Source: an uncultured Chthoniobacterales bacterium (GTDB lineage Bacteria; Verrucomicrobiota; Verrucomicrobiia; Chthoniobacterales; JAATET01). Taken from it: a DNA stretch of 63,788 bases. Every line of letters begins with the position of its first letter. Positions within the stretch are counted from its first letter, which is position 1. The notes beneath the pieces were generated by a model. The model searched no databases. It was not told the DNA's origin and saw only the letters and a list, made by a program, of their open reading frames with translations. The translations under genes were made by a program, and so were the position numbers. Where the stretch lies: positions 44,970 through 108,757 of the forward strand of contig CAXTSM010000008.1 of the NCBI GenBank assembly GCA_964247025.1. The letters are read 5' to 3'. Positions 40,710-42,022 of the stretch are shown here, in pieces.

Positions 40710-41366
40710 CTAAGGGATGTAATAGAAGGGATTCGGAAGTTTGAAACGGTGACGAGCATATCCGCCATCCAGGTCGCTATTTTGATCCCCAAGATTCAAA
40801 ATCACATCATATCCGTTTTCGGTAAGCATTCGACGCACGCCAGATTTGAATGGCACGATGGAAGGATCGCGATAGGTAGACGGCTTTAGAAAAAGACCAG
40901 TCCAACCCCAGTAGCCTGCTTCTTCAAGATCATGACGCGTCGTATCGAGAAGCGATTCGTCGCGACCAGAGATCAAAAAAATGGGTATCTGATAAGCATG
41001 CGCCTTCGCATAAATCGCTCGGAGAGGTGCGAGGGCGATGCCACGTTCACGCTTCGTCCAAGTGGTGAAAGTTTCGGGGGAAATCGCAAACTGACTGGCG
41101 CTGAGGTAAGGCCAGTTAGAGAGAAGAGTTTCGTCAATGTCGAAGACGATCGCGAAGTTTTGCGGTGTCTCTTTACTCAAGTAATGGTCGAGCGTGCGGC
41201 GAGCCGGTTCAGCGGCGCGGGCGAATGCTCGGTCATAGCCTCCCGAGTTATGCCACTGGATACACTGCCATTTGAGAAGCGTAAGATTGGGACTAGGCTC
41301 GTGGGATGACGACGCACAGCCAACAAACGACGTTGCGGCGATGATAGCGCAAAGAAGGCGGATCAC
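40710..41366 (-). CDS. HAD-superfamily acid phosphatase lipoprotein, element-borne intact copy
   Basis: Lipobox FVGC, motif I FDIDETLL, SGR, FKS, motif IV GDQNSD, KLPNPFY. Confidence 0.92.
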   Translation of the reverse strand: MIRLLCAIIAATSFVGCASSSHEPSPNLTLLKWQCIQWHNSGGYDRAFARAAEPARRTLDHYLSKETPQNFAIVFDIDETLLSNWPYLSASQFAISPETFTTWTKRERGIALAPLRAIYAKAHAYQIPIFLISGRDESLLDTTRHDLEEAGYWGWTGLFLKPSTYRDPSIVPFKSGVRRMLTENGYDVILNLGDQNSDLDGGYARHRFKLPNPFYYIP

Positions 41367-41418
41367 AATTGGCAGGATAGAGTTTTCAACTTAAACAACA
41401 AGAAACAGCCGTACAACC

Positions 41419-41456
41419 ATCCCTGGTATATTGACTACACCATGAGGATGATGTCG
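41419..41456. other. Right attachment site (element attP arm + TGAG core at 41443-41446 + host attB half)
   Basis: CCTGGTATATTGACTACACcaTGAGgatgatgtcg. Confidence 0.92.
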
Positions 41457-42022
41457 TAGCCGCGATCCGCGAGCGTTTTTCGGATGCCGGATTTGAACGG
41501 AATGATCGACGGATCGCGATAGCCATCCGGCTTGAGAAACATCGCGCTCCAGCCCCAGTAACCGGCCTCCTCGAGGTCGCGGCGGGTGGCGTCGCGCAAC
41601 GACTCGGCCCGGCCGGAAACCAGGAAAATCGGGATTTGGTAGGCGTGGGCCCGCGCGTAGATGTCGCGGAGAGGAACGAGCGCCAGGCCGCGCTCGCGTT
41701 TCGTCCAGCCGGCGAACGTCTCGGGCGCGATCGCGAATTGGCTGGAGCTGAGATAGGGCCAGTTCGAGAGAAGCGTCTCGTCGATGTCGAAGACGATCGC
41801 GAAATTTTGGGGGGTGACGCCGCGCAGGTACCGATCGAGAGTCTCCCGGGCGGGGACGGCCGCCCGGGCCAGGGCGCGGTCGTAAGCGCCGGAGTCATGC
41901 CATCCGACGCACTGCCATTTGAGCCACGTCAGGTTGGGACGAGGTTCCGGCGCGGGTGAGACGCAGCCACTGAAAGCAATGGCCGTGAAGGCAAAAAGGA
42001 TGCGCGCTGCGCTGGCGTTCAT
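41435..42022 (-). pseudogene. 5' part of the host HAD acid phosphatase lipoprotein gene, truncated by integration
   Basis: Lipobox FSGC and FDIDETLL present; ends GYDIIL-MV* at the att site, lacking the GDQxxD motif found at 14767-14856. Confidence 0.95.

Follow-up and report, generated by a model that had tools for sequence, protein, structure and literature searches.

A large serine recombinase island that splits an acid phosphatase gene carries a full-length allele of the same gene

How can an integrative element land in a conserved protein-coding gene without depriving its host of that gene's function? Integrases that target coding genes gain a reliable, conserved site at the cost of breaking the gene that holds it. 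This problem is posed by a 63,788-nucleotide stretch of DNA (hereafter, the window) from an uncultured Chthoniobacterales bacterium (GenBank assembly GCA_964247025.1, contig CAXTSM010000008.1, positions 44,970 to 108,757), in which a low-GC island of 26,590 bp (14857-41446) splits an acid-phosphatase lipoprotein gene of family PF03767 at a 4-bp core, CTCA. The island encodes a large serine recombinase (LSR) at its left end and, just inside its other end, carries a complete allele of the gene that it splits. The best explanation of the locus as a whole, to which we assign a probability of about 0.6, is that this allele, lying beside the attachment (att) site, most likely supplies the phosphatase function that integration destroyed. 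Support is good for the underlying structure, in which an LSR island has a split target and carries a whole allele that selection maintains as an att-proximal module.

The island and the gene it splits

The 5′ part of the host gene (41444-42022, minus strand) holds codons 1-193, ends in GYDIIL and matches PF03767 at 76 bits over profile positions 74-201 of 230; its GC content is 0.647, and 0.808 at third codon positions (GC3). The 3′ part (14767-14852, minus strand) reads NVGDQDSD...FIP-stop, its N codon beginning in the core. Both halves are undamaged and rejoin in frame across the core, and precise excision would restore the phosphatase gene, both halves being intact. The initial annotation of this DNA had placed the cut between GYDIIL and NVGDQ with the halves 26.6 kb apart, which our analysis confirmed, the ranges it gave having each taken in core bases. 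HAD enzymes are recognised by motif I (DxDxT), motif IV (GDxxxD) and four catalytic aspartates. Motif IV (GDQxSD) lies entirely within the detached 3′ part, and the sequences of both parts bear out the earlier statement that the truncated host ORF has lost it. The host protein, truncated after residue 193, should be inactive, going by what is known of HAD enzymes, because the two motif IV aspartates are gone.

Replacement of the displaced end is a textbook device of integrative elements. We looked for it here and rejected it: the host ORF (41435-42022) gains only M-V-stop from island DNA past the core, so the target is not rebuilt by an end duplicated in attP, in line with the initial annotation.

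The core at the attL crossover region (41443-41446, CTCA on the minus strand) is shared with the core at attR (14853-14856, CTCA). Between them lies the island body (14857-41442, GC 0.52); the GC content of the island is 0.519, versus 0.681 and 0.662 in the flanks. When the two island-side arms are joined, the rebuilt attP is dyad-symmetric about CT, the first two bases of the core, at 22 of 31 positions, and none of 2000 shuffles reached this level of symmetry. The 610-residue LSR gene (14900-16732, plus strand) has its start codon 43 nt from the core, and the protein contains PF00239 (residues 15-173, 57 bits) and PF07508 (residues 201-299, 45 bits). Given the split gene, the shared core, the attP dyad, the break in GC content and the LSR at the left end, we conclude that 14857-41446 is a site-specific LSR integrative island. 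Recombination by the LSR between attP and an attB in the conserved motif IV region would have inserted the 26.6-kb island. In the circular form, the phosphatase copy and the LSR gene would be divergent and about 120 bp apart, with attP in between.

A complete allele of the split gene

The island-borne copy (40710-41366, minus strand) encodes a full-length acid phosphatase of 218 residues with a GTG start, a lipobox cysteine (Cys17) and the motifs DIDET and GDQNSD. Co-oriented with the host gene, it is separated by 68 nt from the stop codon that ends the truncated ORF and by 76 nt from the core, in agreement with the full-length homolog about 70 bp downstream described in the initial annotation. 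Its match to PF03767 scores 116 bits (cut-off 27). From the lipobox Cys onward the copy aligns to the rejoined host protein without gaps and with 153 of 202 residues identical (75.7%), as the earlier count of about 76% had indicated; over the whole length identity is 158/217 (72.8%), and BLASTP gives 137/188 (73%) to the host 5′ part and 23/30 (77%) to the 3′ part. The two genes are 68.0% identical in DNA, with a longest identical run of 20 nt. Divergence between the alleles is spread along the protein and is at the level seen between species of the genus. The AT-richer codons first reported for the copy are also evident, with a GC content of 0.518 and a GC3 of 0.530 versus 0.808 in the host 5′ part. 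This codon usage is island-like; GC3 in other chromosomal alleles of the host's bacterial family is 0.58-0.81 (0.81 in the host gene, 0.53 in the copy).

The lipobox Cys and both motifs of the copy occupy invariant columns (with D76, D78, D194 and D198) in an alignment of 14 family members (alignment A2). Its nearest solved relatives are the vegetative storage protein 4fyp and the class C acid phosphatases 3pct and 2i33. Every match to NCBIfam equivalogs falls below its cut-off, so no specific subfamily name is warranted, and we describe the copy as a HAD superfamily IIIB/class C-type acid phosphatase whose activity is predicted. The target would be a periplasmic or outer-membrane lipoprotein of the same type. 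In protein and family searches of the source genome, which is 99% complete, the copy is the sole intact family member, accompanied by the two host pieces.

The phosphatase gene was found in 29 of 401 genomes of the order. The 28 besides the source genome each have one uninterrupted match, and the source genome alone has three, namely the copy and the two host pieces; this count, the genus count (4/7) and one row of the attB comparison include an unpublished genome (G004). Alignment across the site shows that attB is uninterrupted in island-free relatives. Two genomes, G001 and G008, share with the window the gene block of the left flank, on the 3′ side of the phosphatase gene, which indicates that the host gene has kept its ancestral position. 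A close LSR is absent from all five relatives whose allele is full-length. In G011, the contig with the phosphatase gene breaks off 26 nt beyond the core, and an LSR fragment with a different att arm lies at the end of another contig.

These counts bear on the possibility that there is no element-borne copy, and that the window instead holds tandem host paralogs, one of them hit by the island, or a mis-assembled metagenome bin. In favour of such an explanation, the genome is a draft of 48 contigs and the two genes are adjacent. However, tandem paralogs in island-free relatives, which the initial annotation had named as a refuting observation, were not found: relatives that possess the gene do so in single copy, without exception. 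Furthermore, the codon usage of the copy is that of the island and not of the host, and homology to a contig from another sample (X2, below) ends exactly at the core, which puts the copy on the island side. On these grounds we rejected tandem paralogs. Mis-assembly fares no better, since a chimera would not leave ORF halves that rejoin in frame across a shared core with a dyad-symmetric attP, and we consider both versions of this explanation extremely improbable.

The tree of element-borne and chromosomal alleles that had been called for was built by maximum likelihood from 29 alleles, leaving out the partial allele of G004. The copy nests with alleles of the bacterial family to which the host belongs (clade support 93/93), and its branching relative to the host allele, G003, G001 and G008 is unresolved in that tree. 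From both the host allele and that of G003 it is separated by a dN of about 0.19, with dS saturated. This placement and these values indicate that the copy came from a related bacterium and then drifted to the codon usage of the island. We found no mechanism relying on the LSR alone that would place a whole target gene beside attP, and we thus treat the copy as acquired cargo kept by selection.

Near-identical pieces of this region occur in three public runs from three studies. The first (X1), a 1012-bp contig from a landfill metagenome, matches 40662-41452 at ~97%, with 22 differences and one gap, followed by 222 unlike letters; the match extends beyond the core by 6 nt, which is compatible with the conserved I-I codons but proves nothing. 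The second (X2), a 1569-bp contig, matches 40372-41446 at ~93%, ends exactly at the core and has unlike sequence on both sides, including the 272 letters left of 40372. The third (X3) is a 151-nt contig whose match, with 2 differences, falls within the copy. X1 and X2 both keep the copy and the island-side att arm with its spacer 5′ of the copy (41367-41442, minus strand), a stretch that includes one arm of the attP dyad, and among the pieces listed, X1-X3 cover the host flank in short pieces only and contain no long piece of the island cargo at 30001-40371. The copy and its att-proximal arm (40372-41446) therefore appear to travel together as a module while their surroundings change, a pattern of conserved replacement gene and varying cargo for which two short contigs, X1 and X2, are the basis.

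Comparison with X1 also points to selection on the protein. The X1 protein (P0238) differs from the copy at 2 of 218 residues, versus 11-13 base differences in the coding sequence, and the flanking 134 non-coding nt contain 9 differences. Divergence is therefore ~7% in non-coding and ~2% in coding sequence, where nearly all changes are synonymous, which indicates purifying selection on the island-borne copy. A short ORF lies 5′ of the copy (window 41401-41420) and reads M-V-V-R-L-F-L-V-V-stop. Its stop is replaced in X1, where gene callers lengthen the phosphatase by 18 residues; the true start of the copy is probably the GTG in both the window and X1.

Related recombinases, a second split target and known islands

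We next examined relatives of the island LSR. The nearest, P0002, is 60% identical and lies on a 4.2-kb Logan contig, and the next relatives are at most 46% identical. Four relatives (L091, L063, L071 and L100; 35-54% identical) lie inside comM-type magnesium chelatase genes. These insertions are seemingly at the same conserved place (…GAHNLL(I/M)…), and the gene halves are 31-42 kb apart where they are on one contig. No nearer relative of the island came out of single-protein scans of genome and viral contigs, no candidate emerged when short truncated phosphatase fragments were sought, and a viral-contig scan with alignment A2 returned one match (L211, 35% identical).

Several side observations concern LSR genes. 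In L021, L085, L203 and L023, LSR genes that are 45-71% identical over the parts available share a nearly identical ~40-nt att-proximal arm upstream of the start, and heptamer repeats of the CAATCAA type come before this arm in three of these loci; the LSR of L203 is truncated and fused to TSP3-repeat sequence. The source genome itself has a second LSR gene (G000:C13:65437-67176), 34% identical and with an in-frame TAA, which probably marks a decayed element.

A self-similarity scan of 159 loci of LSR relatives (within 10 kb) gave 16 with a match at E <= 1e-4, which we judged by coordinates. Most were upstream paralogs or repeats, four (L066, L078, L079 and L086) had short downstream matches (<=45 aa), and one, L098, was a clear case. 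In this contig of a Gilliamella metagenome-assembled genome, a 10.1-kb LSR island (within the region 9288-20135) splits dusC at about codon 97. The GC content is 0.22-0.33 in the island versus 0.39-0.41 outside it, and both junctions have CTG in common, with palindromic att arms. The 3′ part of dusC abuts the LSR gene, whereas the 5′ part runs off the end of this contig onto another. The L098 LSR is ~30% identical to that of the window. The island encodes a DusC equivalog of 316 aa (15165-16115, minus strand; 500 bits versus a cut-off of 395) that is 56% identical to the host dusC 3′ part and is the sole intact DusC in that genome. Of the 37 other genomes of the genus, 35 have a single uninterrupted dusC, with 53-58% identity to the island copy in every case, and because no Gilliamella allele exceeds 58%, the island dusC is foreign to the genus. 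The copy is in mid-island, ~4 kb from attL, and opposite-strand ORFs lie in between; read-through from the host is thus unlikely and the copy would need its own promoter. The L098 island also has a second, small serine recombinase gene (11707-12369). By its sequence, L098 represents an independent second case of an LSR island with a whole homolog of its target. Like the window island, it splits a host gene and carries a complete homolog that is the sole intact one, but its copy is mid-island and foreign to the genus, whereas the window copy is att-proximal and from the host's own family.

The closest published parallel uses a different type of integrase. In Pseudomonas putida KT2440, a 65-kb island splits the essential gene tmk, and its last gene, encoding the T4-like dNMP kinase PP_1964, supplies the activity (Wirth et al., mBio 2023, PMC10653934). 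According to the same report, the island has tyrosine-type recombinases, complementation was shown experimentally, and the dNMP kinase gene is kept in related islands of Pseudomonas, Acinetobacter, Psychrobacter and Halomonas while other cargo varies. Relative to the tmk island as described there, the window island likewise interrupts its target and brings along a complete gene predicted to serve the same function, the sole intact one. In contrast, its substitute is a 73-76% identical allele of the target from the host's own bacterial family, where the tmk island has a dNMP kinase that is no tmk allele, its target is an accessory gene where tmk is essential, its integrase is an LSR, and its function is inferred.

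Other islands keep or forgo the function of their target in different ways. Islands in tRNA and tmRNA genes catalogued by Islander restore their target (PMC4383910), and dusA-specific islands replace the 5′ end of dusA (Farrugia et al. 2015, PMC4482086). As these sources describe them, they share with the window island site-specific insertion in a conserved gene and a device that keeps the function, but they supply the displaced end only, fused in frame, whereas the window island supplies a whole separate gene with its own start and signal peptide. LSR elements that disrupt genes include SPbeta in spsM (PMC5499854) and phage WO, whose recombinase sr1WO targets a magnesium chelatase gene (PMC9203015). 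Like these elements and the comM-type relatives, the window island combines an LSR, an attB in coding sequence and flanking halves that precise excision restores; unlike them, it carries a whole allele, whereas those elements, so far as these reports describe, leave the function absent while integrated. In the open-access abstracts and main texts searched, no LSR island is reported to carry a complete allele of the gene that it targets, nor is such an arrangement reported for this phosphatase. What appears to be new here is the combination of a true target allele, a serine recombinase and a non-essential target; substitution of a whole function has already been published.

Does the copy compensate for the broken gene?

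In the mechanism we propose, the island allele would supply the phosphatase activity lost on integration, and the conserved coding sequence would thereby become usable as a landing site at little cost to the host. At least part of the copy's transcription would probably come from the host promoter, by read-through. We found neither a sigma-70-like promoter nor an intrinsic terminator between the truncated ORF and the copy; host read-through is possible and is the simplest reading of the geometry.

The competing explanation that deserves most attention is that the copy is incidental cargo from an earlier host of the same family, which happens to adjoin attP and has no compensating role, the choice of target being unrelated. 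A number of our results weigh against compensation, and several of them suit this alternative. The gene is patchily distributed and probably dispensable. Searches did not detect it in 372 of the 401 genomes of the order, nor in 3 of the genus's 7 other genomes (84-99% complete), and with so many relatives doing without it, it is uncertain whether its loss needs compensating and how close to cost-free, as first proposed, integration would be. Most LSR relatives checked carry no target copy. No phosphatase homolog occurs within 10 kb in 80 genome and 80 metagenome loci of LSR relatives, none of the four genomes of comM-targeting relatives has an extra comM, and in none of 20 relatives' loci, with sequence extended to ~50-60 kb beyond the LSR, is there a homolog of the 870 bp abutting the LSR. 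Carrying a copy of its own target is thus mostly not a clade-wide habit of this recombinase group, which is the outcome of a check that the initial annotation had suggested. Expression is a further weak point, in that no promoter-like site or Shine-Dalgarno-like sequence was found preceding the copy, and no RNA run containing the stretch is listed among public runs. The tree, too, groups the copy with chromosomal alleles from the family of the host. Beyond the core, X1 and X2 could run into another host's gene or be a free attP.

The activity of the LSR is itself predicted from sequence, the one indirect sign of integration and excision being that X1 and X2, from two other runs, keep the copy and arm and diverge at the core. 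The zinc-ribbon domain PF13408 has no match in this LSR, which also counts against our interpretation. In precomputed Pfam annotations, the LSR and its 57 nearest relatives have PF07508 with PF00239, or PF07508 alone in two, and PF13408 appears in more distant relatives. By eye, the region after the Recombinase domain shows no four-Cys pattern. The DNA-binding domain of the island LSR may be a zinc-less variant, or it may hold a diverged, Cys-poor equivalent of the zinc ribbon.

Set against incidental cargo, however, is the coincidence that it requires: the cargo would happen to be the very gene that was split, from a family present in 29 of 401 genomes of the order. In addition, the copy is co-oriented with its target and 76 nt from the core, it shows the signature of purifying selection, the copy and arm are conserved across samples while the neighbouring cargo differs, and a second, independent island (the Gilliamella dusC island) has the same pairing of target and cargo. 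We therefore regard incidental cargo as unlikely and compensation of the disruption by the copy as plausible. Of the initial proposal that the island complements its target with a whole allele, the part that stands is an allele that is intact, sole and under purifying selection; against its novelty and generality count the tmk precedent as reported (PMC10653934) and the presence of a target copy in only 0/4 and 0/20 relatives.

The remainder of the island's content raises one more alternative. The cargo within 14857-41442 includes HNH, ParA-like, AAA ATPase, RadC and single-stranded DNA-binding (SSB) proteins and a LuxR-type response regulator. A LamG/TSP3-repeat protein of 1067 aa (31154-34357) precedes an Rhs-repeat protein of 1729 aa with an N-terminal C39 peptidase domain and TPR repeats (34369-39558). 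A small ORF after it (39335-40042) has no family match and could encode an immunity protein. The island is neither a recognisable prophage nor a conjugative element: ten island proteins compared with PHROGs gave no structural match, only ParA-like and AAA ATPase matches, and no Pfam conjugation domain was seen in island proteins. PADLOC returned weak AAA matches only.

With competition cargo such as the Rhs-repeat protein on board, the island might act by allele replacement, swapping a variant of a surface lipoprotein that serves as a phage or competitor receptor or as an antigen, in the style of lysogenic conversion. The lipoprotein signal, the conserved lipobox Cys and the ~27% divergence of the island allele from the host allele would suit such a role. 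Yet nothing indicates that the phosphatase is surface exposed or acts as a receptor, the divergence is spread along the protein and equal to the level between species in the genus, and the logic is inapplicable to the second example, DusC, which is a cytoplasmic tRNA-modifying enzyme. We consider allele replacement very unlikely.

Returning to compensation, we considered whether the copy could itself be attacked by the recombinase. In the stretch of the copy equivalent to attB, the Leu codon at the crossover is TTG, versus CTN in the chromosomal alleles of the host family. TTG accounts for 3 of the 23 Leu codons of the copy and also occurs at the crossover in an allele from another family of the order (G383). 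The attB-equivalent has 38/60 identities, and 22% of 60-nt windows are as low or lower, so it is not unusually diverged, which again speaks against our interpretation. Self-immunity of this site is a possibility. A broader account would join these threads, with self-compensating integration as a recurrent, independently evolved strategy of LSR islands, of which the verrucomicrobial version would be an att-proximal module plugged into the host promoter, its own attB-equivalent disabled by TTG and its 68% DNA identity to the target avoiding homologous recombination that would trap the island. We offer this account tentatively and regard it as somewhat doubtful. If true, a highly conserved coding sequence would be usable across many hosts without selection against carriers.

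The known ways for an integrase to live with a broken target are to rebuild the displaced end or to excise on demand, and a whole spare gene is a third. In the literature searched, the only experimental documentation of this third solution concerns the P. putida tmk island, as reported in PMC10653934. The window island and the Gilliamella island together suggest that the spare-gene design is general if uncommon, recurring independently in two phyla. Where it occurs, island-borne alleles can silently replace chromosomal ones and so confound gene trees and 'core gene' calls, and island finders that seek a regenerated target will mis-delimit such islands. Finally, pairs of LSR and attB in conserved genes, combined with compensating cargo, could serve the design of low-cost genome integration.

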